Position numbers and translations under genes: made by a program. This document shows, piece by piece, positions 1 through 38,693 of a DNA stretch of 64,000 nt. Origin of the DNA: Psammoneis japonica (Eukaryota); NCBI GenBank assembly GCA_008632985.1, contig QPGO01000115.1:1-64000 (forward strand), read 5' to 3'. A model generated the notes under the pieces. That model did not search any database, was not told the DNA's origin, and worked only from the letters and a program-made list of their open reading frames with translations. Numbering within the stretch: the stretch's first letter is position 1; each line of letters begins with the position of its first letter.

Positions 1-178
1 ACATCGGTATAACAAGTCACCGCCTGGCCGCCGCACCTTGAAGCCCAAACCTTTTATCTGTATTTTTGTTTTGAATTATTTGGACTGGTAGTCCTAATCC
101 AACCCAGCAGAGATTTTCGCTCCTTTATCAAAAAAAACGTTACTATACTTTCAACTCTTTGTTTCTTTTTAAAAAAGG

Positions 179-1183
179 CTACTTATTCTTAAACTCAGGG
201 TAAAGAATATCCCGCATCCTCGCCACATAGGCTACTAAATTCGTGCACGGACTGTCCTTGCTCTTGAGCTCCGACACCCAAGGTTCGGCTGCTTGAGATT
301 CGTCGTACAGAAGAAAAACAAGCCATGAATACACATCACAATCATAGCTGGTCGGATTCTTCGTTCCTAGGATATACTTTTCCTTCCCCAAGAGCTTACT
401 CAGAACGGCAACATCATCTTGTCCTTTTTTGCAAATGTCGACGTGGGCCATTCTACCAATGCCAGCGCCTACCAACATTAGACATTGATTGGATTGTAAG
501 AAAAGAATGAAACTGTGCCTTTTGACAAATAATGCAGCTCGCTTACCGTACAGATTCTTGTTCATATTCCGGAAAACGTGTTTTGAAATCAAGGTTGATA
601 CCACAGGTGGGAACTTCTCTTTCATTTCGTCACTAAACTTTTTTCTGCCGAATTCGGTGTTGAATTTTTGATGAAGCAATACCCAATAAAGGCTGCCTTG
701 GAGCATCTGTTGAATCAGATATCCCTGAGCTAGTTGCTCTTCGCTGAGAGACGAATCGACCGCGTTGCCAAACATGTTTTTTAGCATCGAAAGGATGCTA
801 GTGGAATCATCCACCATGTTTCCCTTGATGTTTGCAAAAGGGACCTTGCCGCGTGGGTTCTCCATCGCTCCTTTGCTCTCCAGCTTTGTGTAGGGCTGAC
901 GAATGAGACGCAGATAAGCTTCCACACGACTGACGTATGGAGAGGAATCGGATATGCCATGCTTCCAACCATGGCATGCATCCAAGACATCAAATCCCCA
1001 AACGGTAATGCTTTCGTTATCTCCTAGCTCAGGGATTTGTTTGGTACACATCCGTTGAATTCTTTCGACAGACGGTGCTTGGAAGAGCTTGTAAATTGCA
1101 TGCAGGGCGACGACGCCCAAGAAGACTACCAAGCTCATCAGCGTCGCATCCCTGTCCATCCCGAACGAAAAACGGTTACCCAT
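179..1183 (-). CDS. FAX/metaxin-like GST-fold protein with N-terminal membrane anchor; probable in-frame intron 469-546
   Basis: SSPYVSRVEAYLR and NPRGKVPF..DDSTSI motifs, plus LSKLLGKEKYILG..PTSYDC; GTAAGC...GGTAG intron of 78 bp restores NLYG-AGIGR. Confidence 0.8.
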   Translation of the reverse strand: MGNRFSFGMDRDATLMSLVVFLGVVALHAIYKLFQAPSVERIQRMCTKQIPELGDNESITVWGFDVLDACHGWKHGISDSSPYVSRVEAYLRLIRQPYTKLESKGAMENPRGKVPFANIKGNMVDDSTSILSMLKNMFGNAVDSSLSEEQLAQGYLIQQMLQGSLYWVLLHQKFNTEFGRKKFSDEMKEKFPPVVSTLISKHVFRNMNKNLYGKRAALFVKRHSFILFLQSNQCLMLVGAGIGRMAHVDICKKGQDDVAVLSKLLGKEKYILGTKNPTSYDCDVYSWLVFLLYDESQAAEPWVSELKSKDSPCTNLVAYVARMRDILYPEFKNK

Positions 1184-2076
1184 TTTCTTTAGCCAGTTGG
1201 TTTACGTAGCAGAACGATGATTGACGATTTGACGTTATACCGGTACAAGATCTATGATCTATCACCTGTCTTCTAAGGCTATCTGGGAGAGATGGGCGAT
1301 GAGCGAAGATCTGGATGAGTCTGCAAATCTGGATCTTCGAAAGATCCACAGCCGCGCGGGAGAGTCGCGCTGTCGTCTGTTGGCGCTGCGTTGGCTGCGA
1401 GTCTACTTCTCTCTCGCTCTCTCTAGTAGAGAGAGTAGAGACTATGATACTCTCCTCTACTCTACAGTAGCTCTTAGAGCTAGCTATTCGTAGCTAGTGC
1501 TCGAGCTACTAAAGAGTAGGGTCACGACTACTTCTAGTTGAGAGAATGCTCCAGCTGCGAAGCATCAGAGATCGTGGATCCACCCTCAAGTGTTTGAAGG
1601 TTGACAAAACCGAAAGTGCATTCATCTTTAGGTCAAACAGCCCTGACAGAGGGATCACATAGGGCCCGCGGCCGGGGGAATAGCCAAATCACGAGACATT
1701 CAAGATATCCCTCGATGCGGTAGCTAGAGCAGACTACAAGCACACATGACTTGTTTGAGTTGGTTCTCTGTTCTGTCGTGCTCCTCTCTACCAGAGACAG
1801 AGTAGCCAGAGCAGAAGCCATAAATAGATCTGCTAACGTTCTTGACGCCAAGTTACATTCGAGAAAGCATGTGTTTCAGCAGTGTGAGTGATTCAATCCA
1901 TTTGCATGTAACTTTTATAAAGCGTCTTATGCTTTTTAAAATGAACAACTTTTTACGCACATGGAACCAAGTACAAGGTCTCAATCACAGTACGATATCT
2001 CCGATGCAGTTGAGTACCATCTGTGCCCGGATGATGGTCGAATGTTCCGCTGGCGTGTTCCTCTTACCTCCTAAAA

Positions 2077-3664
2077 TCAATGGTTTGCCTTTGTCTTCTT
2101 TCCTTTCGGTGCACAGATGTTTTTGTGGCGTTTCCAATCGGATATTTGGCATTCTCTACTGCAGTAGAACACATTCTTGCATCTAGCGCAGCGCTGTAAT
2201 TTCTGACCTTCACCGAGACGCTCCTCTGGCTTACCACATGTTTGGCAAGCTCCTGTTGCCATTCCGCGCTCCATCGCTCGATGAATGGTCTCGCTCGACG
2301 TGTTTCCAAAAAGCACGCTCATCCAGTCTGTAGAATGGCCTGGATTAGGTATCATATCTTCTTTCCAAGCCTTCCGCATTGCCATTCTACCCAATTTGAG
2401 GCTGAACGAGGCTTCTGGGCCAACCAAACTGGTGTCTTGAGGGTATCCACCTTCAAAGCCTGGTTTTGCCGCATCACGCATCCATTCATAATTTGAATCT
2501 GTACCCGCAAGACGAAGCATCTCAAGACTTAAAGCGTAGGCCTTCGGGCCGCCGCAATCGTAGTCTCCGAAGTCGAGATAGTTGCTTTGGGGCAAACAAG
2601 CGCCTTTACCCCCCACCAACTGGGCCGCGCACTTTTCTCGTGGGACTAGATCAGTGAGGACGATTTCGGTTTTCCAGCCCGATATGGAAAGCACATGATA
2701 GAACTCCTGTCCGGGCTCCTGCATCAAATCAGCCAAACAAACGTCAGAGTCGTCTACGCGCATCGGATGAAGGCTCCGCACGGTCCCGTGAAAGCCATGA
2801 TTGCTGCTCATCGAGGGCGTTTTGGTGATTGCACCAAACACCACATCATTGGCAGGATTCATGGGTGGCTTCTTCATGTAGCCATGAGGATGAACAAGAA
2901 ACACAAAATCGTGGTAGCCGCGAGTCCAACCAAACGCCGGACAAAGGACTCGGTCATGAAATGCAGAAAGTGGAAGGTTTGCGGCAACGTGGAGGTCTCG
3001 TTCCGGAGCTATGCAGGCATCTAGCCCAGTTATCTTAGCCTTGAGGACCATAGTCATCTCTAACGCAGGCTTCACCTTGAGCTGGCGATTCGATCGGTTG
3101 CGTAGGATCATTTCCATGACCGCCTTTGGAATTCGCTGTCGGCCCGAGGTACTTGATTCTTCTTCCGCCCAACTGTGGAAAGCATATCAGACATACTTTC
3201 TGATCGCATTTGGTTGTCGCAATTAGCGAAAATAGTAAAGTGATAGTCCTTCTCGTAGAAAGGATGCTGGTACCCTTTGTCTGCATGGAACAGAGGAGGA
3301 CTGCACATAATCTTTTCGGTCAGCTCACCCTCTGTATAGGAGTCCTCATCCTCTTCTCCCTCATCGTCATCAGAAGAAGAATTATCACCCAAGTCTTCTG
3401 CACCTGATCCTTCCTCTTTGTCACTGCTGCGGGATCTGCTGTCGTCATCTTGGTTCAGAGTCTCCACTTCCCAACCCTCTTTGAGACAAAACTCCTTGAA
3501 TCTCTGCTGGTCGATAGCATCGATCTCGTATCCAATATCAGGATAGAAGGGGGCGCGACCGTCCCATTCGTACTCGTCCATCGGGGCACTTTCTAGGTGG
3601 TTGTCGCTGCTCTTCTCGATCTCTGTGAACCAATTGACGATTTTGTGCAATTGCATCGACATAG
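2077..3664 (-). CDS. pRiA4b-ORF3-like domain plus C-terminal MYND zinc finger; upstream acidic ORF (3664-3190) probably the same gene across a 1-nt frameshift near 3188
   Basis: CQTCG...CARCKNVFYCSRECQISDWKRHKNIC is a MYND finger; LSAFHDRVLCPAFGWTRGYH and GGKGACLP..DCGG resemble pRiA4b ORF3; the MYND frame stays open back to about 3187. Confidence 0.65.
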
Positions 3665-3762
3665 GATGAAGGCGCCTGCGAACAACGCAAGCTTCACATG
3701 AAACCTCAATTGGGAGGGGCTGCGCGATTTGTGCGGTCTTTGCATGTTCAATGTTAGGTTTA

Positions 3763-4833
3763 TTATGATGGCTTATCGGTGGCAGAAGCAGCCGGTTCTT
3801 TGCAGAAACCGGGGTTGTTCCAAAAGTCACTTGTAGTGAGGCTTTCCATGATTGACTCTGTCGGTGGCCTTGCAATAAAGTACGCATTCACATTCTGCTG
3901 CTTCTTGGTCTTTGTTTCTGTTGGACCAAATGGCTGTTGCGGCAAAAGCCAGCTCGAATCAACAACGAGGGATGATTCCTCCTGTACTTCACGAACGGCG
4001 CCTTCAAGACAAGTCTCGCCCAAATACCGTTTGCCTCCGGGAAGGTTCAACTCAAGCTTCCGCTTGCCATGAGAACTTTCGTTGTAGACAAGAATGAGCC
4101 AGAAAGCAACGTCAGCGTCAGTATCATCCCTAGTCATAAACAAAAGCTCCTTCAAGTGGTGACCAACAACAAATTGTGGAGCCTTATCGTCTATGTCGAT
4201 GGGAACATTGTTGTTTTCCGTCAATTCTCGTAAAAGTTGCCTCTCTGAATCCTCTTTGAGCGTTGCAGTACTTCGTGTTGTTTTAGTTGTGAGTGCCGCC
4301 AGCGTCCGTCGTGAAATTGTACACACAAAGTCAGCATGATCGGCATGTAGTGATCCCTGTGTTTCCAGAACCCGCTGCTTGCGTTGACGAGCCTGGTCAC
4401 GGGCAAGATTTACAACAGACCGAGACGGAGATGTCACGCACACAAAACCATTCGGATCGTTTCTTTGTAGCAGGCAAGCGGCGCACCTCACTTTATACGA
4501 AACATCCGTCTCGTCAGGAAACAGCTCGGACCTAAGCTTTCGTTCGGCCTCTAATGGATTCTTGTTAAACTCTGACGACTCGGTTCCAAGACACATATAG
4601 ACGCTTCGTGCTTTATTCTTTGAATCAGGAACCACCATTAATCCATCACCTGGTTTGACGCCTTTCGCTCGCTGAATTGATTCGTTTTGTAATGCCGTTC
4701 GTATGTTCTTTATTTTCGCACAGGAACAGTTCGGCGCGTGCACAGAATATCGAGAAGCATTGCATGTCTTGTGCATGACGGAAAAGTCGTCGGTGAACAA
4801 TTTAGGGGTCGACGGTGGTCTTGATCTTGGCAT
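3763..4833 (-). CDS. NUDIX hydrolase domain protein (start may be upstream at 5052)
   Basis: Nudix box LPGGKRYLGETCLEGAVREVQEESSL in a long ORF. Confidence 0.75.
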   Translation of the reverse strand: MPRSRPPSTPKLFTDDFSVMHKTCNASRYSVHAPNCSCAKIKNIRTALQNESIQRAKGVKPGDGLMVVPDSKNKARSVYMCLGTESSEFNKNPLEAERKLRSELFPDETDVSYKVRCAACLLQRNDPNGFVCVTSPSRSVVNLARDQARQRKQRVLETQGSLHADHADFVCTISRRTLAALTTKTTRSTATLKEDSERQLLRELTENNNVPIDIDDKAPQFVVGHHLKELLFMTRDDTDADVAFWLILVYNESSHGKRKLELNLPGGKRYLGETCLEGAVREVQEESSLVVDSSWLLPQQPFGPTETKTKKQQNVNAYFIARPPTESIMESLTTSDFWNNPGFCKEPAASATDKPS

Positions 4834-5384
4834 TGTATGGATGCTGTCGATAGTCGATCGCTGAGGCCCTGTCAGATTATTGAGTGAAGAGCTTCGTTCC
4901 GTTGCTGCTCCTCTTGGTAACGCCCGTGAATAGCGAAAGTGTCGTTTCGATGCTATCACTCGCGTTGATGGAACTGAACCCTGGTAATGTTTTGGTCGAT
5001 AGACGCTTTGGATTCTGTTGAGCAGCGCTTGTGGTGAAAAGGTCCTCCTCATGGCGGCGCTGGCTTTGTGCGCGGACGCTCCACGTTTCGCTCGCTCAAT
5101 CGCGCGTCCCCCTGTGCGCGACCACCTAACCGATATTCTTAGTCGTGAGCGTGACTGACATAAGTATGTTCCCGGGACTCAGGTAACGCTCGGGCGATTT
5201 TGGCGAGTGACTGAGTCTCACGTCTCGTGAACCTCGTTTGGTTGATCCGTGGTTGTGTGTCATTCATGGCCATGTGACAAGGAGAAGCTAATCGTGCACA
5301 TTGAAAACAAATAGAAACGAGTCATTCTTCCATAATAATCCAACGTTACTCGTACTTTAGCTACACGTGTTCAGTAATTCAAAG

Positions 5385-7400
5385 ATGCAGTTTAAGAAGG
5401 TGATGATTCATGTCGTCTTTCTTCTTTTCGCCGTTGTCGCCACAAGAGCCCGCCGTCTTGGCGGTCACCATCATCAACAAAGCCTTACAAAAGACAACAA
5501 AAGTGATGGATTCCCAAACATCTACACTGTGCGGTTCTCGTCACCACTGACAAAAGGTGCCGAGGCGTTTCTCGCGTCGCTGGATATACTCAAAACCAGC
5601 AGCGACGACGCGCAGAAGATGAGCAACGGTGTAACAGTTACGTTCATGGTTCATTCGGGAGAAGAGCTCAAGTTCATTCGTGATCTTGCAGCGAAAGAGT
5701 CAATCAAAAGCCTCGACCTTGATTTGGAGGCAACCAAGACGTACATGGCCAAGATCAAACCCGAGAACGATGTCGATGTCAAGAATACAGATTCGACTAT
5801 TAACAACTACCCCTGCTATCGAAATCTTGCAGGTATGGAAGCTCTCATGCAAGACCTGGTAAAGCAAGCCGAGTCAATACCGAATCTTGAAGTAACTCTT
5901 ACAGATATTGGGGATTCATACCTGAAGAGTCAAAACGCAACTCAAGGATATGACATTTGGGCGCTCAACATTACCGGGAGTGGAGTCAGCTCTCGTGGCA
6001 TGACAACAAAGAAAGGCGTTCTCTTTGGCATGACGGGTATTCACGCACGGGAATATGCACCACCCGAACTGGCCGCGAGATTCTTGGAAATGCTGGTGGA
6101 CGGGTACGGGTCTGATTCTCATGCGGATATTACATCCGTATTGGATCATACTGAAATCCATTGGGTGCTAAACTCTAATCCGGATGGACGATTTCAGGCT
6201 GAGCAATCGCCGTCGCTCTTTCGTCGAAAGAATTTAAATGGATCCCCTACTGTCTGTGGCGAGGGAGGTTACGGCGTGGATCTCAACAGGAACTTTCCGT
6301 TCAAGTGGGGTGGTAGCGGCTCCTCATCCTTCCCATGCTCGCAGACCTACCGCGGAGCTTCGCCCGCCTCAGAGCCCGAAGTCCAAGCTATTGTGAATTA
6401 CGTCTCGAGTATATTTCCGGAAGCGCAACGAAAGGATGATCCAGAGGAGAAAATTGACGAACCATTCAATGAAGATATTGCTGGCATCTTCTTTGACTTG
6501 CATAGTTTTGGCGAGATTATTATTTGGCCGTGGAGCTATGCCAACAAAGAGACAGGCAATGACCAGGATCTTGAAGCATTGGTCCAAAAATACCAGTCCT
6601 CTAACCGATATGACTTTTCGGGACCGAACAATAACTTCTTGTACCCGGCATCTGGTGTCACTGATGATTGGGCCTACGGCGTTCTTGGGATTCCAGGCAT
6701 GACATTTGAGCTAGGGACGGAGTTCTATCAAGATTGTGGCTACTTTGAAAACAATGTGGTACCACGCAATCTACCTGCTCTTCTTTACTCGGCAAAGACC
6801 GCAACAGCTCCCTTTTTGCTCTCCAAAGGGCCGGACGTGACAAGTCTTGTTCTATCACAAGAATCTCTTGAAATGAAAGATTCGTCTTCAGTTTCGATAA
6901 CCGCTGAAGTAAGCGATAGTGCACTATCATCTGCAGGCTTTCCTTCCGCACAACAGACGATAGCTTCCGTTCGGGTGTTTGTCGACACCCACCCGAATGA
7001 TGTTGTCAATGAAGGAAGAACTGCGGCTCCAGAAGGACTTGAGATGGAAAGTGCCTATGCTTCTGGGACTGAGACCGCCACTCTGTCTCTTACATTTGGG
7101 GACCTTAAAGATCTGATTCAAAAGCCCGTTTTGGGAAGGCACACGTTGTACGTACAAGCAACCGACAGCGAGGGCTATGCAGGTCCTGTCGCAGCAGTCT
7201 ACGTGGAAATTGTTGAAGACGCATTGACAAGTGAATGTGAGGACTCGGAAGAGACATTCATTGTTGATACAGATCTTGTTGGCGAAAGGAGCTGTGATTG
7301 GCTATCCATCAGCATGTTTCGTTTCAGCTATTTGTGCGACCGAATTGAAGTCGGAAGGCGCTGTCCAAAGACATGCAATCACTGTGATCTGTTTGGGTAG
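5385..7400 (+). CDS. Secreted M14 zinc carboxypeptidase with C-terminal ShK-like Cys domain (paralog 1)
   Basis: Signal peptide; HARE, RRKN, GVDLNRNF, DLHSF and TFELG motifs; C-terminal C..CDW..C..CPKTC..C. Confidence 0.9.
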   Translation: MQFKKVMIHVVFLLFAVVATRARRLGGHHHQQSLTKDNKSDGFPNIYTVRFSSPLTKGAEAFLASLDILKTSSDDAQKMSNGVTVTFMVHSGEELKFIRDLAAKESIKSLDLDLEATKTYMAKIKPENDVDVKNTDSTINNYPCYRNLAGMEALMQDLVKQAESIPNLEVTLTDIGDSYLKSQNATQGYDIWALNITGSGVSSRGMTTKKGVLFGMTGIHAREYAPPELAARFLEMLVDGYGSDSHADITSVLDHTEIHWVLNSNPDGRFQAEQSPSLFRRKNLNGSPTVCGEGGYGVDLNRNFPFKWGGSGSSSFPCSQTYRGASPASEPEVQAIVNYVSSIFPEAQRKDDPEEKIDEPFNEDIAGIFFDLHSFGEIIIWPWSYANKETGNDQDLEALVQKYQSSNRYDFSGPNNNFLYPASGVTDDWAYGVLGIPGMTFELGTEFYQDCGYFENNVVPRNLPALLYSAKTATAPFLLSKGPDVTSLVLSQESLEMKDSSSVSITAEVSDSALSSAGFPSAQQTIASVRVFVDTHPNDVVNEGRTAAPEGLEMESAYASGTETATLSLTFGDLKDLIQKPVLGRHTLYVQATDSEGYAGPVAAVYVEIVEDALTSECEDSEETFIVDTDLVGERSCDWLSISMFRFSYLCDRIEVGRRCPKTCNHCDLFG

Positions 7401-7699
7401 ATAATTTCAAGCCATTGTTGCAGTGCAAAAGCTCTTTTTTCCAGCTACACGGCATTCTAGTTCATATCGCTATGCGTACGCATCATCGAATTTTGTGACA
7501 GTGTCATCAGAGGAATGACTACTACCGGTAGACCCTAGAGAGTTTATCCACGTCCACTTCACACACGTAACCCATAACCCACACAATTCGTATAAGACTA
7601 TCTCGTAATGAACCACATTTTAACAACCATTATGCGGTGGAAAGGCATCTATTATGCAATCTGAACTCAGCCCTAGAAGTGCTGGTGTCTTTTCACCTC

Positions 7700-8380
7700 C
7701 AATCGTTTCACCATCGATCAGAAACCTCTAATGATCTTCACAATCTCCCAGGCCCTTCCGTTCCCTAAAAGCCATAAACACGTCAGAAAGTGGCTTTGTA
7801 GTCTGCAACATGAACCTAGTAATCTCAAAGGTTTCACTGTCTCTGATGGCGATCGGAATTATTTTATTAATAAGCTCTCATCCAGTCACTTCTTAGTCAT
7901 CAAAGAAGGACACAAAGACGCACATTCGAGTGGGGACATTTCTGATGGCAGCCAGAGCTGCAGTGGTCATCCAGCAACAAGTGTGACATTGACCGGACCT
8001 TTCATCTCAACTCAAAAGGCCTTGACGCTTGCATGCACAAAAGTGCGCTGGCACAAAATCAACCAAGCCATGGAATGGTTGAAAAAAACAGTCCTCTCTG
8101 TCACAACATTTCAGGTGCACAAGAAGGCTCCAAGAAGGTTCTCAGGTTCCTGCTGCAGATGACTGTGCAAGACAACACTGTTGAAGATTGTCATCACAAA
8201 ACATTGTTTTTAAAGCTGCGTGACAGAAATCTGGGCATGTGTCATGTGATTGCCCTCATGTCATCAGGCTTGAAAACAAACGGGTTGAGTTGTTTTGTGC
8301 ATGACAAAAAGACAGCACAAGTTCCAAACAGATCATTCTCAATGGAAAACAGTTTTGTGCATTGCTTGCTTGTTGAGATT
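7700..8380 (+). mobile_element. Degenerate Helitron-like fragment
   Basis: VRWHKINQAMEWLKK(N)SPLCHNI resembles the Helitron-associated VRxxKVxxALxWLKxxNPLYxDI motif, with a frameshift and Y->C. Confidence 0.4.
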
Positions 8381-8387
8381 GGCAACA

Positions 8388-8572
8388 TGCAAGATCTGGC
8401 TTGAGATGACTTGATAAAACAGGTTGTGAGAGAACCAAGAAGAGACCCGATCAGCACAATCACTGATCAGAACTGACTTCTGACGGCCTCTTGAATGTCC
8501 AACATGTCAGTTGATGCACATGTGTCAGAGAGGGCACACTTGGTCATGGAGCACATGTGCCTGTCTCATTCA
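8388..8572 (-). repeat. 3' LTR
   Basis: Near-identical to 12408-12594. Confidence 0.9.
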
Positions 8573-11500
8573 CTCTTCCCCTCCATGGCGCAAGAATCAT
8601 GCACACCATTGGAACCACTTGACTCAAATTTAAACTCCAAATGCACATGGAGAAGGGAACCCAGACATTGGGAAGAAACCCTCAACTCCGATGTGGCACC
8701 ATGCGATGAATGTCAATTCGCTCAATGACGTGTGGTGCTCACAGCACCGAAACTGTCCTGTTGGCGTGGACTTGCACAATTCAAAATGGACTGTGAGCTC
8801 AAGCTTCTAGCTTCGCTGGATCGACGGACTTGATCAACACATCTTGTCCCACCAAATGATCACAAGAATGACACTTCGCATTCTGTCGTCACAGGTTTTC
8901 ATTGATGAGCACTTGACAGTTGGCTTGAGTGGCAGCAAGATCAGAGAGAACAGGTGGATCCAAAATCATGTCTCGTTGGAATGCCAAAGCTCCACTTGAA
9001 ATGCCCATGGACCTTGAATGAGAGCATCGCAACGCAAAAGAGGCTGCAGCAAGGGCATCATCCACAATCTGCTTGGCCTGTTGAATGTTCAAAGGTGGGT
9101 CAGCAGCAACCACAGTTTGCAAAATGTCAGCTGCCAGTTGGTGCATTCGTTCACAAATGGAGTTGGCTGCAGGATTCCGTGAGGTTGTCGGAGCATCTTT
9201 GACACTGGCCTGGTTCAACGGCATCTGAAATTCCCAACCAATGAATTCACCGCCATCATCATGGACACATCAATTTGGTCTGGGATGATGAGCTGACCAA
9301 AGGTTGCGGAACTTGTTGGTGATGTGTTGAGAAGTTTTGTTGTCAGTGCGCACGAGTTCAGTCAGGCCAGCGACAGCATCAATGCAAGCAACGGCACTGA
9401 ATTTGATCTCTTGATCTTGAGTTGGCATTTTCCACGGCCCAATGAGATCAACTGCTGCTTCCGACCATGGAGCCAATGGTGCTTGGCATTCAGGCAATTC
9501 TCCACATCCCGGACCAAGTTGTTTGAAACGTTGACAGGTGTTGCATGCAAACTCATTACAACACCGATGCAATGCAGGGTGATGCATGTGAGTGCAAATG
9601 CTCTCGCACAAATGAACAACTCCACAATGGCCCAACACACGATGATGACACCACACGAGCATGTCAGGCAACAATGCAGTTGGAGTGCAAATTTTCCATG
9701 CTCCAGGTGGATCACTCAAATGCAGATGACAACATGTGAGAGGACACTGGTTCACAATCTTGACCACAAATTGCTGCGGGTTCTGTTGTCTCTGCTGACT
9801 CAGTTGCTGGTCCTCAAACTGGAGCTGTTGCACCCACAATGTCTTGGTGGGGCTTGGCATCTTGTCCAATGTCAGACAATTCAAAAAGCATTCTAACAAT
9901 TCAGGCTCATCAAGCAGAGAAGAAAAGGCATGAGACTCATCAGAGGAATTGACAGGAGCATGGCAACACTTGAACCTGCAAGCACCCAACTCCAAATCTT
10001 CTCTTCCTTGGCCTTGCTCAATTCACTGCCATCCAACTTTTTGAAATGAACAATTTTTCCTTTGCGTTTGCTGTCTGGCCCAAAAGGCTCTTCCCCTCCG
10101 AAGGTGGATCCATGCACGGGAGTCAAGAAAAACAATCGGCGAGCATGTTGTCCTTGCCTTCTGCATGTTCAAAAGTGGGCACGAAATCTTCAAGGAACAG
10201 ACGCCAATGAAGGATGCGCTGTGTGTTCAAAGTGCAAAAGGTGAGATTTTCATGGTCAGTGTGAACATTGATGTCAGCACCGAGCAACATTCACAACCGT
10301 CAACTCTTCTGGTCTTGTCGAATTCGGGTGGCACAATGTCACTCAGAGCCACCCAATGACCCGACTCTGGAAAGGACCTGCCACGGTTTGAAAGGCTTGT
10401 ACTCCATGCTCATCAATGGATGGCACAGCTCCATGAGGCAAAACTTGAGAAGAGATCACAGTGTGAGAGCCACCAGAATCAAACAATGCATGCATCACAT
10501 GATTCGACTCATGACGCTGGATCGATTTGGCAACTGGTGGGGTTGATGGAACCAATGCGGTGCGCGAGACTTGCGAACCCATTTTGGGGAGAGGAGTGTT
10601 GTGTTCAAATGCATCTTGATCGAATGCGTCCCCCTCTTCATTCATGTAATTTTCTGCAGCATCTTCAAATTCAATGGGCGACAATTCGTTGGGATTTTCA
10701 AAACAATCAAAAGCAAAACTTTCAGGTAAATTTTCAGGCATGATGCAATCATCTTCAACAAATGCTTCACATGTGGGCAATTGGGAGCATTCAGCTCCGG
10801 AGCACTCAGCTCCTTCTTCTCAGAACTGCCAAGGAAACTGCCCACCTGGCTGAAACCTCACCACACCTCCATGACGTGGAGGGCCTCGTCCGATCACATC
10901 GAAATGGTGCATGTCACCACGAGGAGCTTCTCAAGCCTGGTTGTCATTCATGTCATCTGCTTGAGCAGCACAACCATCAGCATGACCTTGGCCACCACGA
11001 TTGTTGTCATCATTGCAATGATGTTGGCCACCACCACCTTGGTTGCCATTGTCACTCTGACTCCCATTGTTGTTGTTGTTGTTGTTGCAATTGTTGCAAT
11101 GGGCACTGCGACCTCCTTGGTTTTGGTTGCCACGACCACCAAAGTGTCCACCACCACCATGGCCAGGACCACGGCCTCCTTGGAAGCAACCTCCGCCTCA
11201 ACCTCCACCACCACGACCTCCATCTTGACTGCCACGGTTTTGAGGTCCACGACAGTCAGGGTTGTTTGGATCATCACAGCACTGGCCCCATGCATGTCTT
11301 CCATGATGCCATGGGACCGGACACAGATCACCAGCCTTGGGTTGACCCTTGTTGTCCTTCTTGTCATGGCTGCCCTTCTTGTTGCTGGAGTTCCCTCCAT
11401 TGCCATTGTTGGACTTGCATTTCTTGTTTTCTTGACCATTGGCAAACACCTTCTCGTCACTCATGTGAGCTTGAATGTCCACCTTGGAGTCTGCAACAAG

Positions 11501-12407
11501 ATTCTTGCCCGCACGAATGTGGGGCTGCTGCCAGGTCAAAGGAAAGGTGCAGAAGATGACATTTTTCTGCTCCTGCTCTGTGAGTTCAGGGATGTTTCCA
11601 GGCAAGCAGTCAGCACAAAGAAACAAGGTTTCCATGCAATCAATGCAAGTTTCAGATTCCATGGAGCAAGGTTTCTTGCAAGCAGGCAAGCACATCTTCA
11701 TTGCATCACGAGCTGTCGGCTTCACATGACGCAGACAGCAGGCCGAGATGGCTTGATTAAACCGAGCTGCCGTCCTTTGATTCTGTTGGATGCCCGCTGT
11801 GACATTCTGCCATTTTGCCTCTGCAGTGCCTTGCAGGCAAGCCTCAAAAGCATCAAAAAGTTCCGCTCCGGCATCACAATCCAACTGTCTTGCTGCCTTC
11901 TGAAAATGGTCCTCCACATGCGACAGTGATTCAATTCCATGTTCTCCTGCAAAAATGGGACACATTTTTGAAAGTTTAGTTCCATCATCAAAGGTTTGAG
12001 CAAGCTTCACTTCCTGCAATTCAGAGTCCACAAATTTGGTTTTGTGCTCAATGCATGCTTTCTCCAAGGCTTCTTGACACATGCCGATGAACAATTTCAG
12101 CGATCAAGGAATCAATGATCCACACAATGGATGAAAAAACACGTTCCCAATTGATCCACACAATGAGAACAATCAATGACCAAACAAAAACAAATTCAAG
12201 TGTGGCAACATGAGCTTCACGTTTAAACAAATGCTGCTCTGAATCACCAATTTCACGAGCACAGTTGCGCTGAGGTTCCGATTGATTTCTGATGAAATTT
12301 TCTGCACGAGCATGCAAGTGAGCTTTCTCTCTTTTCACCAGCACTCTGCACATTGTCATGAAATGGATGACACAACAAGCAAGCCATGACAATGACTGCA
12401 ACCACAG

Positions 12408-12594
12408 TGCAAGATCTGGCTTGAGATGACTTGATAAAACAGGTTGTGAGAGAACCCAGAAGAGACCCGATCAGCACAATTGCTGATCAGAAATGACTTC
12501 CAATGGCCTCTTAAATGTCCAACATGTCAGTCAATGCACATGTGTCAGAGAGGGCACACTTGGTCATGGAGCACATGTGCCTGTCTCATTTGCA
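12408..12594 (-). repeat. 5' LTR, followed on the minus strand by PBS-like TGGTTGCAGTC
   Basis: Near-identical to 8388-8572. Confidence 0.9.
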
Positions 12595-14906
12595 ACAAGA
12601 TGACAAAACAAAGGTCATGTGATTGTTTAACGTCAATGACCTCCAAACAGAAAAATGGCTAATCGACTGGCCAGGAGTCGATCATTTTCCAACCAAAAAA
12701 TGACCCAGGCAATTCAAAAATTGGAGTCTTTTGTGTCAATGTGCAAAGTGATTTGCATGAAGTCCCGAAGCCTTCGAAAGTCACTGCACTCTGTTTCACA
12801 CACAAAGACCGCTTGCAAATTTGGTCTTTTTGAAAGTGGTCAACCCCAAACCCGCCCCAACTTTGTCTCACCCGTCTGTCTCCGGTCAGGGTCAGGGCAG
12901 GGGGGAGACACAGATGGATTTGTCAACTCATGTCCGACACCCCAGATGATGCTGACAAAAGAGAAAAAGAGGCCAACCCCAAAGCCAAGAAAGAGAACAC
13001 ACCACACCCAAGAATCATGAGATGGCTCCTGAAGAGGGTGGAGCTGTTGGGGAGGATGACAGTGCCTCTGGGGAAAGAGAGCAGTCGGAGGACAAGGGAG
13101 ACTCTGAGGGAGTCACTGTCCTGTCACAGGTCAATCCCGATTTGTCACCCAATGTCTTCAACTCGGATGCAGAACAACTCATTTGTGAGGTGTGCGGTGA
13201 GACATGCAATCCAAATGATGGCACTCATTTGAATGGTGGCACATTGGATGACCAAATTTGGCAAGAGTGTTGGCGCCGGCTGACACCTCACCCAACAGAA
13301 TGACGCGACGTTCCGAATGGCTCCGCAGGGAAGCACTTCATTGCAACATTGGCTGAGTTGCTCCGTGGAGTCAAGACATGGAAATGGAACTCAGAGAGAT
13401 TTGCAGTGTTCCAGATTGTCATTTTGCAGCGGGGGCACAATGCAAAAGGCGCAAAGGACATTGGGGCTCCACTCGCACAGTGCATGGATGATTGGGACAC
13501 AGACAAACACAAAATGCTGGTTGAATCTGCCAAGCGGCTGCTTGCAAGCAATCTCAAATCCACTCTGAAGGACGAGACACACCCGAGCAGCACACCAAAA
13601 CATTTGACAGAATGGCGCCACGAGGAAACCCAAGAGATGCAGTCAGGTGCATCACAGAGAGGGAAAAGGGCGGAGCCCTGTCCCTGGATGACATCGATGA
13701 CAAGACCAATGACGCAGCATTGGAGGTCCTGCAAAAGAAACATCCAAAGTCAAGGGTTCCAGAATGAGACCAATTTCCTGTGCACAGCAAACTGCCTGAG
13801 CTCCAGGATGTCACAAACGCCAACAGTGTTGTTGATGCAGTGTCAGAGAATGGCATCTCCATCATGAAAAAACCAGTTGATTGCTTTGAGAAGCCCATCA
13901 GGCTCTCATGGCAAAGAGGCTCACAGCGCCAGACAAAAATCCAGGCATCCATCCGGTTGGTGTGGGAGAGGTGTGGCAGTGAGCCACATGGCCAAAGCCG
14001 CTCTCCTTGTCTTGGGAGCAGAAGCCAAAGATGCTTGTGGCACTGACCAGCTTTGCGCGAGTTTGGAAGCCTGCACCAAAGGCGCCACTCACACAGCGTG
14101 TCTGCTCTGGGAACAACATGAGTTTGAGGATGACCCGCGGGTTTCTTTTTGTTGATGCATGCAATGGCTTCAACAAAAAGAACAGGGTGATCATGCCAGC
14201 TGTTTGTGGTGACCTTGGAATGCTCACGCTCCTCCACAGCAAGGATGGTGTCATGCAGGGCAACCCACTGGGCATGGCGACATGCAAGTTGGGCCTTCTC
14301 CCACAAATCCACAAGATGAGCAAGCATTTTCCAGATGCACTCACTCCTTGGTGTGGGAAATTTCAAGTTCTGCGCGATTGTTTTCCAGCTCCAGCCCACA
14401 AGCCAAAGGACCCAAGCGCAGCTGTTGCCCTGCCAACAACTCCAAAAACATTCTTGTTGTTCAACAGCACAGCCTGGAGAATGCCAAGAACTGCTTTGGG
14501 GACCTCAGCTTCACCATCAAAAGTGGCCGCCACTGCCCAGGAAGCTTCGTGGGCAAGAGAGAGGGCTCTCAACAATTTGATGGTGGACAAGACCAAGAAG
14601 TGGACCTGGGTTGTCCAGGGACTTGCCAAGACAGCAATTTGCCACCCACAGACAGCCTGTGCTGGCCTGCAGAAGTCTCCACAGCACAAGTGGCAGTGTG
14701 TTCAATGTGCAGCCAAGGACTGCAGCGACTCTTTTGCCAACGTGGAAGAAGCAATTAAATGCCAACCCCTGTTGGCACTTCCAGGCAAGACCCTGAAGGA
14801 TGATGACCCAAGGCTGCCAGCCCTTGCCTCACTGCCAATCAAATTTGCAGGACCATCTGTCCAACATCTGCTGGAGTCTGCAAACCAGGACTTTGAAGTG
14901 AGGGCT

Positions 14907-15302
14907 GACGCGTTCCAGCCCTAGGTGGGAGCTCGTAGTGCTGACGTGTGACAACAATAATTTTTATCATCCGTCGTATGTTTCGTACGTAGATTTCTAC
15001 GTGTGACATTTAAAAAAAATTGTCCAGACTCGCTGTTTTGCGAAGCCCCAGACGTTTTATATAACAAATTTATAGAAACAATAATGCGCCAGTTACATTC
15101 TTCAATGTCTGAAGAATGTAACTGGCTAAGTAAAAAATGATGTACTTCAATCATGTGCGAGTTTGTGCGTTCGCAAAATTGCCTCATTTTCTGTTGGCGA
15201 TCATTGACATTTTAATTACCGTATAATTTTACTACGGAGCTCGCACGTAGAAGTCTACGGGCCCAATGTCACACGGATTCCCACCTACGTCTGGAACGCG
15301 TC
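14907..15302. mobile_element. 396-bp MITE, intact (TA-containing) copy
   Basis: TIRs GACGCGTTCCAG..TAGGTGGGA / TCCCACCTA..CTGGAACGCGTC; 4-bp TSD GGCT (14903-14906, 15303-15306). Confidence 0.9.
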
Positions 15303-17181: not shown

Positions 17182-17419
17182 NNNNNNNNNNNNNNNNNNN
17201 NNNNNNNNNNNNNNNNNNNNNNNNNNNNNNNNNNNNNNNNNNNNNNNNNNNNNNNNNNNNNNNNNNNNNNNNNNNNNNNNNNNNNNNNNNNNNNNNNNNN
17301 NNNNNNNNNNNNNNNNNNNNNNNNNNNNNNNNNNNNNNNNNNNNNNNNNNNNNNNNNNNNNNNNNNNNNNNNNNNNNNNNNNNNNNNNNNNNNNNTGTGT
17401 GTGTGTGTGTGTGTGTGTG

Positions 17420-24812: not shown

Positions 24813-24955
24813 GATCAATCGAAAAAAATTGCGTCCAAAGTCCAAACGTCCAAACTCCAAACATTACTGTTCATCAAACGAACGTTCAAAAGCGTTAAGG
24901 TGTGCCATTCTTTTTCCCACGTGTTTGTTCTGCCTCTTTTAAAAACAACAACATA

Positions 24956-26881
24956 ATGAAGTTCGGGCCAAGTTTTCATCTAGTAGCAGTGTTGACGGCT
25001 TTCTTTTGGTCTTCAGGCGCGCATCCAAACCATGGAGAGCCAGTATTGCGAACGAGAACCCATCACATAGCTTTGGCTCATCAGGGCATTGACGATTTAT
25101 TTCCTCGAGTTTACACAACAGAAGTCCCATTGACTTTGTACTCAAATGCCACGTATGTTGTTGGGAGCTTGGATATCCTGAAAATTAGGCAGATCCGAGA
25201 ACAACTCCTGATTACGTTTCTCGTTCACAGCCATAAGGAGCTGAATCGTACCGTCAATCTTCTGAACAATGCCCCCCAACCAATTCGATATGATTTCGAC
25301 GAAGAAGCTACTCGGAACATTCACACTAAAAGAAGACATGGAAGCTTGCAGCAGCCACGAGCAATGGCTGAAAACAGAGGTGTTCAAGAAACATACTCAA
25401 CCATCAATGGCTTCCCGTGTTACCGCGATGTCGCAGGAATGGAGCAGTTCATCATTGATATGGTGGATAAAGCGCAATCGATACCCAACTTGCTTGTAAC
25501 GCTTGCTGATATTGGTGACTCGTATCAGAAAACGCAGAACGAAAGCAACGGGTACGATATTTTTGCTCTAAACATTACTGGGAATGGCGTTCAAGCACGT
25601 GGCGCGACCACCGAGAAAGGCGTCATGCTGGTATTGGCTGGCTTACATCCGAGAGAATATGCTCCACCTGAAGTAGGGGCTCGATTTGCCGAGCTGCTTA
25701 TCTATGAGTATGGCAATGATGCAGATGTAACGGCTCTTCTCGACCACACTGAAGTCCATTTGGTGCTTCAGTCCAATCCAGACGCAAGATTTGTCGCGGA
25801 AACGTCGCCATTTTTGTGGCGCCGCAAAAACATGAATGGCGATGCATATCTTTGTGGCGAAGCTAACTTTGGTGTAGATCTTAATCGAAACTTCCCATTC
25901 ATGTGGGGCCTCGATATTGGTTCATCATCCTACCCCTGTTCTGGGATATACAGAGGAGTCTCACCGGCATCAGAACCAGAGGTGAAAGCAATTGTTGACT
26001 ACGCTTCCGAAATATTTCCTTTGGAGCAGCGCAAGTCTGATCCAGTGGGACAAATCAATGAAGCCTATTCAGAGACTATAAAGGGGATCTTTGTTGACAT
26101 TCATTCCGCCGGCGAGTACGTTGTCTGGCCGTGGGCTCACAGAAACCGACGGACAAGCAATCATCGCGACTTGATAAGCGTTGTCGACAAACAGCTCTAT
26201 TTCAATAAACATGAATTCTCAGGACCATCTGTAAACTTCCAGTTCATTGCTTCCGGTGCCTCAGACGATTGGGCTTATGGTGCATTAGGAACCGCGGCTT
26301 TTACCTTTGAAGTTGGAACAAAATTCTATGAAGACTGTGACTACTTTGAAGCCTCAGTACTACCCGGTAACCTCCTCTCATTGCTTTATTCTGCAAAAAT
26401 TTCCAAGGCACCGTATCTTCTTTCCAAGGGTCCCGACGTGACGAAAGTAACCATCGTGCCGCAAGTCGTCGACACATCAATCGACTCAACTTTAACAGTC
26501 ACGGCGATTGTTAGTGACAGCGCCTATTCAACGGCAGGCTTGAGGTCCTCGAGACAGACGATTTCGTATGTGCAACTATTCATAGACAGACACCCGTATG
26601 ACCTTGTTGACGGCAATCCTATTGCTGGACTCGAAATGAGCTGCGAATGTGACAAGGGGACCGAGACTGCATCGTGGTCACTTTCAATGGCCAGACTTGC
26701 AAAAGAGCTCTCTTTCGTGTCACCTGGGCGGCATATGTTGTCCATTCAAGGGACAGACAGCAAGGGCTACACAGGTCCCGTCACCTCCGCCTTTTTTGAG
26801 ATTACTGAATCTGTTCCTAGCTTGGTGCCAACTGACGGTCCTTCCATGCCTGCTGCCACCATGCCTGGAGGTTCACCATAA
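24956..26881 (+). CDS. M14 carboxypeptidase paralog 2, C-terminally truncated duplicate of paralog 3
   Basis: HPRE, GVDLNRNF, DIHSAG and TFEVG motifs; TAA replaces TCG of paralog 3, and nucleotide homology continues to about 27006. Confidence 0.85.
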   Translation: MKFGPSFHLVAVLTAFFWSSGAHPNHGEPVLRTRTHHIALAHQGIDDLFPRVYTTEVPLTLYSNATYVVGSLDILKIRQIREQLLITFLVHSHKELNRTVNLLNNAPQPIRYDFDEEATRNIHTKRRHGSLQQPRAMAENRGVQETYSTINGFPCYRDVAGMEQFIIDMVDKAQSIPNLLVTLADIGDSYQKTQNESNGYDIFALNITGNGVQARGATTEKGVMLVLAGLHPREYAPPEVGARFAELLIYEYGNDADVTALLDHTEVHLVLQSNPDARFVAETSPFLWRRKNMNGDAYLCGEANFGVDLNRNFPFMWGLDIGSSSYPCSGIYRGVSPASEPEVKAIVDYASEIFPLEQRKSDPVGQINEAYSETIKGIFVDIHSAGEYVVWPWAHRNRRTSNHRDLISVVDKQLYFNKHEFSGPSVNFQFIASGASDDWAYGALGTAAFTFEVGTKFYEDCDYFEASVLPGNLLSLLYSAKISKAPYLLSKGPDVTKVTIVPQVVDTSIDSTLTVTAIVSDSAYSTAGLRSSRQTISYVQLFIDRHPYDLVDGNPIAGLEMSCECDKGTETASWSLSMARLAKELSFVSPGRHMLSIQGTDSKGYTGPVTSAFFEITESVPSLVPTDGPSMPAATMPGGSP

Positions 26882-36800: not shown

Positions 36801-38440
36801 ACATGAGGCAAATGCAGGCCTGTGGTTCTGATGCTGGTGGTGGCAGCATGCACTGAGCTCTTCCTGCACCGCTTCCCAGTTTCCAGGGGTTCACCCAGAT
36901 CTTGAAGAGTCAGCCCAGCTCACAGCATGAGTCACCCTCCTTCTTGCTGCCACAGCAAAGCTTTGTCGCACCATCTGGAGAGCACAGGGAAGCTGGCAGG
37001 ACTGCTCAAACCCACACATCACACAACCAAGAGTGCCAGCAGGAAGGGGTTGCCACTGTCACAAAATCCCAGGCCAAAGCTGGAGATGGAAGGAGCTCCT
37101 GTTGGCACCACATGTTGCTGCAGCTGAAAAATGGTGTGTGAGCCTGCTCTCACCACTGATGCTGCAAAGATCCCAAGCCAAAGCTGGAGATGGCAGGAAC
37201 TCCGGCTGGCACCCCATGCTGCAGCAGCTGAAAAATGGTGTGTGAGCCTGCTCAAGCTTGTTTGCCAGACTGTGTGGGGCTGCTCCCTTTGAATGATGAG
37301 CACAAAAATGCTCTTAAATGGGCCATTCATTTCTTTCATGTCCAATGTCACCTCTGCCCATCGCCAGCATGCGTGCATTTGCATGAGATGCTTGCCCTCT
37401 TTTTGCCTCAGCCAGCAGCACACCTGCATGAAGCCACAGGGCTGAGTTGGCTCTGTCAACTGCTTGATGGAGATGCAGAGAAATGGTTGTTGCATGGTGA
37501 CAGCAAGCTTGAGAGGCTTTCCCCCATTGTTGACATGGCAGGAGAGCACCCACTTTTGCCAGCCAATGCACGATGTGTGAAACAAAAGTGCATGCTCCCA
37601 AACAACAGCCCATCATTGGAGATGCTTTCCACAGTGCACTGAGCTTGACTTGTGATGTGTCAACAGCAGCAGCAAAAAAAGAGTGGGGAACTCCAGGGCA
37701 TGTTGCCAGCAGCAGCAACAGACCACAGGCCCAGACAAGCATGAAAGTTCATGATCGTGCACCCGGCCAAGATGGTGGCACATTGGGCACACCATGCAAT
37801 TGTGGGTGGGGAGCATGACTCCATTTGCAAGTCAAGTGGTGTGCTCCCAAAGTGTGTGTGATCTGTGAGCAGTTGGGAGAAGCCTCCCTCAGCAAAGAGG
37901 GCAGCATTTTGGAGGTTGGAGGCACAGCCACCCTGGGCAACAAAGAGCCAACAAAATTCTGGCCCTGTTTGTGTGGTTGAAAGCAAAAAAGGTTTTGCCA
38001 AGGTTGGGTCTAAGAGCCATTGAGCATGCACCAGCTGTGACCACTCTCCTCTGCATGCATGGTGCTGCAGCAACACCTCTCGCTCTTTTCTCAAAAGCTT
38101 GCTCACCAGCACATGGTCCGAAGCAAGCAGCCACAAAACTGCAAAAGTTCTTCTTCTTCTCCCTGGCCCTTCCCAAAGAATGCAGCGTTTGAGTCAATGT
38201 GTGGTGCAGCTTGAGCAGCCAAGCCACACTGCAGGAGGAGAGCACTGGGGGCAGAGAGGGGAGCCGGCAGCTGGTGCCCTGGCTTGGCTCAAAGCAACTT
38301 TGGGGTGCTCAGCATGGGTGGCACACACCACTCCATGTCACATGTTCGCCCTGCAGCTGCAATGTGCACCCACCTTTCGTGCCTGCAACCACCCCAGATG
38401 ACAAAGAAGAAGCCAACAAATCTCTGGCCCTGCTCAGGGA
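35860..38440. other. TpA-depleted block 3
   Basis: Near absence of TA. Confidence 0.9.
37068..37253. repeat. Two direct repeats of about 82 bp with about 104-bp period
   Basis: gccaaagctggagatgg...gcagctgaaaaatggtgtgtgagcctgctc occurs twice. Confidence 0.85.
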
Positions 38441-38693
38441 CATAAATGTCGTCGAATCCCCTCCTTTTTTCCCTTTTCCTTTAGTCCGGCCAGAATGTGA
38501 AAAGCTCCAAAATTCCGTCTTTCCGTGTCTCCTTCCCCGTTCGCGGTTTTCAGTTTTCACTTCTCTCGCACACGATCCATCGCAAAAAACTGCGTCCAAC
38601 ATTTATTGTTCATCAACCGAACGTTTCCAAAAGCGTTGTTGGCGGAGGTGTGTCCTTCTTTTGCCCACATGTTTCTTCTGCCTTTTGCACATA

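Follow-up and report, generated by a model that had tools for sequence, protein, structure and literature searches.

A family of Ty3/gypsy retrotransposons in the diatom Psammoneis japonica has very probably been altered by two chromosomal processes that act within silent domains after integration, a TpA-specific change of A to G on either strand and the ordinary decay of CpG. The analysis started from one member of this family, located in a stretch of 64,000 nucleotides (assembly GCA_008632985.1, contig QPGO01000115.1, positions 1 to 64,000 of the forward strand), which is called the window throughout. Judged by its sequence, the element is a dead long terminal repeat (LTR) retrotransposon of the Ty3/gypsy type that has lost its reverse transcriptase (RT). 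An original prediction had pointed to reciprocal differences between the two LTRs, TG in one where the other has CA, and had concluded that the mutations arose in chromosomal DNA after insertion and not by RNA editing or RT error. That conclusion is borne out by evidence from the family, and not by the argument from individual sites that had been offered for it; the window pair is a modest witness and the family a strong one. The family comparisons establish the TA ancestry of converted sites, the involvement of both strands, the timing after integration, the dependence on the chromosomal neighborhood, the preference for sequence context, and the co-variation with CpG loss.

In the mechanism that we propose, family members would integrate, and the chromosomal DNA of their silent domain would then mutate by two processes. 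The TpA-specific A-to-G change, acting on either strand, would turn TA into TG or CA until some 90 to 95% of TAs were lost, with an A that precedes a pyrimidine being converted about 1.6 times faster. The second process would be ordinary decay of CG to TG or CA. For the window pair, this would mean that two reciprocal sites came from TA and one from CG, that a site reading TG in one LTR and TA in the other reflects a fresh G-to-A change, and that most conversions are common to both LTRs.

Sister copies were fetched from the genome and their natural LTRs were tallied site by site; removal of a haplotype duplicate of the window LTR and of one broken LTR reduced the set from 57 to 55. When the window copy was aligned with L032, a TA-retaining sister, the 147 aligned TAs read TG in 68 cases, CA in 66, TA in 9, and something else in 4, and the 144 aligned CGs read CG in 55 cases, CA in 46, TG in 38, and something else in 5, giving conversion levels of 91% for TA and 58% for CG. 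The A-to-G and T-to-C changes are confined to TpA. Relative to L032, A became G at 47 of 91 positions preceded by T, compared with 17 of 269 preceded by A, 17 of 245 preceded by C, and 2 of 230 preceded by G (1 to 7% after bases other than T), and private A-to-G changes outside TA amount to 0.6 to 1.0%. L032 and L033 are neighboring copies (C160:113213-140630), converted only in part over their entire extent, with a TA observed-to-expected ratio (o/e) of ∼0.5 and TA-rich flanks; both carry stops. Among 12 copies, both TG and CA occur at 164 of 200 internal sites of the TA class; L043 was left out of the internal alignments on account of a nested insert.

The pol reading frame was compared at 23 Tyr positions that are conserved in six public gypsy pol proteins. 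Ten converted copies gave 211 aligned cells, of which 109 hold Cys, 59 His, 19 Tyr, 18 Phe, and 6 another residue, and the window copy has His or Cys at all five of the positions that it covers. Two TA-retaining copies keep Tyr in only 24 of 45 cells, indicating that those copies are partly converted too. The replacement of Tyr by Cys or His, together with the finding of both outcomes at most TA-class sites, excludes a CG origin of these sites and also a reversed polarity, in which TA-rich copies would have arisen from TG/CA ancestors through C-to-T changes at CpA in the manner of repeat-induced point mutation (RIP). One new TA is indeed present in the window pair, at 12512-3, and diatom DNMT4 enzymes are described as relatives of fungal RID (PMC9998398). 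However, at 164 of 200 sites the copies are split between TG and CA, the outside relatives have Tyr where the converted copies have Cys or His, and C to T before A is the rarest private C-to-T class in subfamily 2 (0.4%). The reversed polarity is refuted by the outside relatives and must be regarded as next to impossible.

The window LTRs differ at 12 of 185 positions. Since the genes are on the minus strand, the right LTR (12408 to 12592, with 2 TA and 1 CG remaining) is the 5′ LTR, and the left LTR (8388 to 8572, with 1 TA and 2 CG remaining) is the 3′ LTR; both are on the minus strand, and the polypurine tract and the orientation of pol served to tell the 5′ from the 3′ LTR. All four differences quoted in the original prediction exist, and they account for 7 of the 12 differing positions. 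The list had missed 8437 (A/C), 8473 (C/A), 8484 (C/T), and a fourth reciprocal CA/TG site at 8571-2/12591-2, and the range given for the element started correctly at 8388 and ran 2 bp too far at its end, the right LTR stopping at 12592. Four adjacent double transitions within 12 differences are far from a random scatter.

The sister LTRs give these sites different ancestries. At the reciprocal CA/TG site 8461 to 8462 (partner, 12481-2), CG is found in 20 of 24 sister LTRs, and in 31 of 38 comparable ones, and the site is therefore ascribed to CpG decay; the C/T difference at 8484 is of the same type. The two reciprocal TG/CA sites at 8481 to 8482 (partner, 12501-2) and 8512 to 8513 (partner, 12532-3) are derived from TA because, among 53 sister LTRs, TA is the commonest state and CG is absent: the counts are 28 TA, 13 TG, and 12 CA at the first and 32 TA, 15 TG, and 6 CA at the second. 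At the TG/TA site, 8492 to 8493 (partner, 12512-3), the 38 comparable sister LTRs have 36 TG, 2 TA, and no CA; here, as in the tally of 31 of 38 above, 15 LTRs of a shorter subfamily were unalignable and were left out. The TA-richest sister LTRs read TG at this site. The two that read TA lie in near-duplicate stretches (99.9% identical over 2,408 bp), and one of them has a TA-richer partner LTR that reads TG. With TG nearly throughout the sisters, the TA in the 5′ LTR is a new G-to-A change. The prediction had taken this TA to be retained, and the site to be the only one that discriminates TA from CG ancestry; being newly made, it points the wrong way, and the sister tally rules it out as proof of TA ancestry. 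The accompanying caution, that reciprocal TG/CA could come from CG and that CG in an intact LTR would tell against the interpretation, was justified at 8461 and not at 8481 or 8512, so that one of three sites has CG ancestry. At 12591-2, the outer terminal dinucleotide of the 5′ LTR reads TG on the plus strand, compared with CA in 50 of 53 sister LTRs, a change that would have needed two steps, via TA or via CG. Contigs of the probable source sample, a weak and nonindependent check, had no alternative letter in either LTR.

CpG deamination alone could be held responsible for the reciprocal sites, and it does hold for 8461 and 8484. Moreover, the window copy has TG or CA at 84 of the 144 CGs of L032, and the internal stops in 76 family pol matches, counted by hand, are 116 TGA, 3 TAG, and 3 TAA, an excess of TGA that is expected from CGA decay and the loss of TA-containing stops. 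As the sole cause it is refuted by the conserved Tyr codons that became Cys or His. It likewise fails to fit 8481 and 8512, where most sister LTRs have TA and not one has CG, and the TA o/e of 0.05 in the element itself, and we consider it highly improbable.

The timing of the change was addressed with material that lies outside the LTRs. Target-site duplications arise when host DNA is copied at integration, and they never pass through RNA. The 21 pairs comprise 16 without any difference, 2 with a TA/TG difference, 2 with a CG-type difference, and 1 with a difference of another kind; in one of the two TA/TG cases the pair extends over 20 kb, its LTRs having been paired by orientation and that duplication alone. 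Seven LTR pairs differ by 4 to 12 TAs, six in favor of the 5′ LTR and one in favor of the 3′ LTR. In an edge test with 54 LTRs, one LTR without a flank having been dropped, at least 8 TAs were found in 15 of 22 LTRs beside a TA-normal outer flank and in 0 of 32 beside a TA-poor flank (P = 2e-8), and whole copies, whose conversion runs from partial to almost complete, follow their flanks in this. The differences in target-site duplications, the TA-asymmetric pairs, and the dependence on flanks place the change in the chromosome after integration. Four of the first 12 elements had suggested that sparing is limited to the 5′ (promoter) LTR; this rule was abandoned, as a TA-normal flank goes with sparing of the 5′ LTR in 10 of 12 cases and of the 3′ LTR in 5 of 10, and one element is reversed.

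These observations bear directly on editing before integration, whether by an ADAR-like enzyme acting on RNA or reverse transcription intermediates or through RT error. The genome does have two deaminase genes of the ADAR/ADAT1 family, and one-strand editing of cDNA after copying could in principle make the LTRs differ. The polarity expected of one-strand editing is lacking in the window copy, where the sense strand has TG and CA in a ratio of 68:66 (P = 0.93), a balance that speaks against editing of RNA or of one cDNA strand. Host-derived target-site duplications differ at TA, flanking DNA that is not part of the element is equally TA poor, and LTR sparing tracks the chromosomal flank. An origin before integration is scarcely credible on these grounds.

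Several results weigh against a process that acts on both strands after integration and converts each LTR separately. Over ten copies, the sense strand has more TG than CA (999:739); context accounts for most of this excess, although TG still makes up 0.55 of the outcomes in self-complementary contexts (P = 0.14). In the edge test, the cutoffs for flanks and LTRs were set after the data had been seen. Finally, the window LTRs themselves are more alike than the claim of independent conversion in the original prediction would suggest. Of their 14 converted TA sites, 12 are in the same state in both LTRs and 2 are reciprocal, whereas such sites in 20 sister pairs divide into 70 same and 73 reciprocal (P = 0.008 for the window pair, ∼0.15 over 21 pairs). 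With 12 of 14 shared, the pair is a weak witness of independence, and some of its conversion may predate insertion or have been homogenized.

For the window pair only, it stands just short of an even chance that most TA loss predates the last common copy of the two LTRs, either through a converted template copied in trans or through gene conversion between the LTRs after hypermutation. In addition to the ratio of same to reciprocal sites, rarer states are common to both LTRs; at 8547, for example, both have TG, a state found in 6 of the 53 sister LTRs, 39 of which have TA. On the other side, when heavily converted LTRs are paired across elements, the shared fraction of the window pair is reached in 20 of 655 cases, and the probability over 21 pairs is unremarkable. 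Of 80 candidates, 40 were scored, and apart from the haplotype duplicate they include no other LTR above 90% identity. Agreement of the internal region with the sampled copies nearest to it is limited to 62 to 64% of converted TA sites, and the junction of the RT deletion was found in no second copy among 40 scored of 65 candidates. No converted parent with the same conversion pattern was seen among the 40 scored of 65 or the 40 scored of 80 candidates, numbers that are lower bounds. Chance, gene conversion between LTRs, and a preconverted template may each explain the shared states, and converted elements may still be copied in trans, as these unusually shared states allow.

The TpA-specific process has a marked context preference. 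Across 148 internal sites in 18 copies, TA retention is 2.6% for RTAY, 9% for YTAY and RTAR, and 26% for YTAR (R, purine; Y, pyrimidine). Expressed as hit levels per strand, these values are 1.55 to 1.72 before a pyrimidine and ∼1.0 before a purine, with a small 5′ effect, and TAY is converted ∼1.6 times faster than TAR. Independent agreement comes from the window itself: of the TAs left in its TA-poor parts, 36 of 59 are YTAR, compared with 161 of 1,021 in genic parts. The loss of TA is also linked to that of CG: across the 55 LTRs, retention of one correlates with retention of the other (rho 0.64), and the LTR with more TA also has more CG in 6 of the 7 asymmetric pairs.

This co-variation raises the possibility that the A-to-G changes come from error-prone repair of T:G mismatches at deaminated methylcytosine by a polymerase-eta-like enzyme, rather than from a DNA adenine deaminase. 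TA loss tracks CG loss both over the LTR set and within the asymmetric pairs, as repair of that kind would have it. Polymerase-eta-like mutagenesis has a WA motif (W, A or T), in which AA is raised along with TA. Here, private A-to-G changes after A number 38 of 3,668 (1.0%), compared with 0.6% after C and 0.7% after G, while ∼90% of TAs were converted, and transversions from A are low, at 0.3%. The barely raised AA argues against a WA-type signature, which was sought and not seen in these private changes, and we consider the repair explanation unlikely.

Adenine deamination would be the simplest chemistry for an A-to-G change. C5-methyltransferase matches are present in the genome, and in the diatom Phaeodactylum, DNMT5a-dependent methylation of young transposons is described (PMC9998398); a further report supports a limitation of methylation to transposons in Phaeodactylum, and TpA goes unmentioned in the passages covered (PMC12344493). 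With the co-variation of TA and CG, these points make a mutator confined to methylated heterochromatin the simplest model. The domain would be cytosine-methylated heterochromatin, and the A-to-G change would result from a TadA/ADAT-like enzyme that acts on the DNA there and deaminates adenine to inosine, a reading to which we give about even odds. TadA8e is described as favoring a TA motif (PMC11022790). Evolved TadA variants are also described as mutating A in any context (PMC10085711), a behavior less strict than that found here and a point against such an enzyme. More tentative, and in our judgment somewhat likelier to be wrong than right, is the fuller proposal of a dedicated diatom DNA adenine deaminase that is guided to cytosine-methylated heterochromatin, strips TA (TAY preferred) from transposon domains nearly completely, and forms an A-to-G counterpart of RIP that is shared, or convergent, with a rhizarian alga.

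A search of the deaminase families gave 9 matches to PF00383, 5 to PF14437, and 4 to PF02137, none of them unusual beyond a second ADAT1-like gene. We take the matches to be dCMP-deaminase-, TadA-, ADAT2-, guanine-deaminase-, and RibD-like genes and two ADAT1-like genes; they presumably encode ordinary metabolic or tRNA enzymes, which does not favor a dedicated mutator. The presence of one ADAT2-like gene (C26) and one TadA-like gene (C38) is what tRNA editing would predict. One gene of the ADAR/ADAT1 family per genome is usual. The two separate PF02137 genes found here (L083, C40:112674-113392; L085, C79:344558-345390) both have the HAE motif, and the second gene could be considered a weak candidate for the mutator.

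The closest known system is the case reported for Bigelowiella natans, in which integrated DNA of nucleocytoplasmic large DNA viruses (NCLDV), as well as of virophages, is described as undergoing TpA-restricted A-to-G and T-to-C hypermutation (Mettrop et al., bioRxiv 10.64898/2026.01.13.699255). As described there, an ADAT2-like enzyme is proposed, the de novo rate is ∼1,000 times background, the process is active in some lines only, and TpA-depleted coding sequences are rich in reverse transcriptase and DDE domains. To the extent that sequence comparison can tell, the process in P. japonica works like that of B. natans and is a variant of this recently described kind. Both systems show TpA-only changes giving TpG or CpA in chromosomal DNA, on both strands, with foreign, silent sequence as the target, and here host genes are spared (TA o/e of 0.035 in the domain, compared with 0.58 to 0.60 in genic DNA). 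Going by that preprint, the systems differ in host and target, a rhizarian with viral targets there and a diatom (a stramenopile) with transposon targets here, and in extent, the conversion here being nearly complete (TA o/e of 0.03 to 0.05, compared with 0.45 in its NCLDV region). Co-variation with CpG decay and TAY preference are features of the present system, whereas a rate was measured only in B. natans. The words diatom, LTR, and CpG do not occur in the main text of the preprint, and no report of TpA hypermutation in diatoms was found in the literature covered, which mostly excludes subscription papers.

RIP prefers CpA. The process here resembles RIP in its near-saturating, dinucleotide-specific transitions, which affect repeats only, fall on both strands, and destroy coding capacity. 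Its chemistry is the opposite: RIP of ascomycetes changes C to T (PMC7882544) and so makes TpA, whereas the process here removes TpA and turns Tyr into Cys or His. CpG decay through deamination of 5-methylcytosine on transposons accounts for the CG-derived sites of the window pair and for the TGA stops, but TA conversion is beyond its reach, and the CG process is the less complete of the two.

The conversion distorts LTR dating. The 20 sister pairs show 357 differences; TA columns contribute 235 of them, CG columns 73, and all other columns 49. The raw divergence amounts to 0.099 (range, 0.033 to 0.173), compared with 0.019 (range, 0 to 0.061) outside TA and CG sites, a 5.2-fold difference (5.5-fold after Jukes-Cantor correction), and the first 12 pairs alone give a 6-fold inflation; because the column classes were drawn from the same LTR set, these ratios are approximate. 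For the window pair, 12 differences in 185 raw positions become 4 in 137 masked positions, an inflation of ∼2.3-fold. The warning that dating would be inflated was thus correct, by ∼2-fold for the window pair and ∼5-fold for its sisters.

The element was recognized as a direct repeat of 183 nucleotides at 8388 and 12408 (95% identity, spacing of 4,020 bp), flanked by an identical pentamer, CAACA, at 8383 to 8387 and 12593 to 12597 as the target-site duplication. A polypurine tract (8573 to 8584, minus strand) adjoins the 3′ LTR and resembles the sequence next to most sister 3′ LTRs. Broken remnants of pol follow on the minus strand. The RNase H end and integrase lie at 8688 to 10290, as located by tblastn with residues 617-1141 of a public relative, P0001, and by the Pfam domains of that protein; 5 TGA stops fall within 8688-9998. 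A protease region lies at 10299 to 10666 (tblastn, P0001 residues 9-129; protease Pfam match at P0001 residues 64-152). Between them, at 10291 to 10292, comparison with sister copies reveals a deletion junction where 1,420 to 1,449 bp, including RT, were lost. P0001 has the Pfam domain order protease, RT, RNase H, and integrase, and since the window copy is colinear with it except for RT, the element is a Ty3/gypsy copy without RT. The integrase frame is 42 to 54% identical to six public proteins and has no Pfam match. A gag-like region, with approximate limits of 10850 to 12100 on the minus strand, is suggested by position and likeness to sister copies and has no Pfam match. A putative primer-binding site, placed by position at 12390 to 12407 (minus strand), shares its sequence with sister 5′ LTR borders. 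Paired LTRs, a 5-bp target-site duplication, a polypurine tract, and the order protease-(RT)-RNase H-integrase are as in Ty3/gypsy (Metaviridae-like) elements; the 1.4-kb loss of RT and the loss of the canonical terminal dinucleotide of the 5′ LTR set the window copy apart from typical members. Among the six public relatives, columns where Tyr became His or Cys number 3 of 12 in P0002, 2 of 21 in P0001, 2 of 14 in P0006, and none in the other three, too weak a sign of the process to be used. P0002, a gypsy pol relative with ∼66% identity to its best long matches, is poor in Tyr (1.5%) and rich in His and Cys, a faint hint of the process elsewhere.

The host genome has 24 silicon-transporter matches, the best scoring 697 bits, which mark it as that of a diatom. 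Along the window, TA-free blocks alternate sharply with normal DNA. The element and both of its flanks lie in a TA-poor domain at 7896 to 14755 with 16 TA in 6,860 bp and a CG o/e of 0.39. The genic DNA at 1-7894 has a TA o/e of 0.60 and a CG o/e of 0.96, and the CG o/e of genic DNA overall is 0.95 to 0.96. Three M14 zinc carboxypeptidase genes on the plus strand (5361-7400, 24899-26881, and 38193-41144) have normal TA contents, with TA-free blocks between them, which indicates that the process spares host genes that are duplicated. At 14756-15290, a short island within the TA-free domain, TA density is normal, and a run of 214 N occupies 17182-17395. A second haplotype of window positions 1719-8612 is present at C488:6100-16008 (L046), with 98.2% identity; it ends in 225 bp, including the 3′ LTR, that are identical to the window. 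As a test of ongoing activity it proved uninformative, since no more than 712 bp of the TA-poor zone fall within it, and these hold one CG-type difference.

The conversion hides dead elements from protein searches, as the integrase frame of the window copy illustrates, and LTR divergence ages in this genome are on average ∼5 times too old, and unevenly so. Within the literature found, a near-saturating natural change of A to G in chromosomal DNA has been reported from one alga only, and its occurrence on diatom transposons extends the process to a second lineage of the stramenopiles, alveolates, and rhizarians (SAR). The process would point to a natural DNA adenine deaminase, and since gene knockout tools exist for diatoms, the enzyme and its guide become testable.

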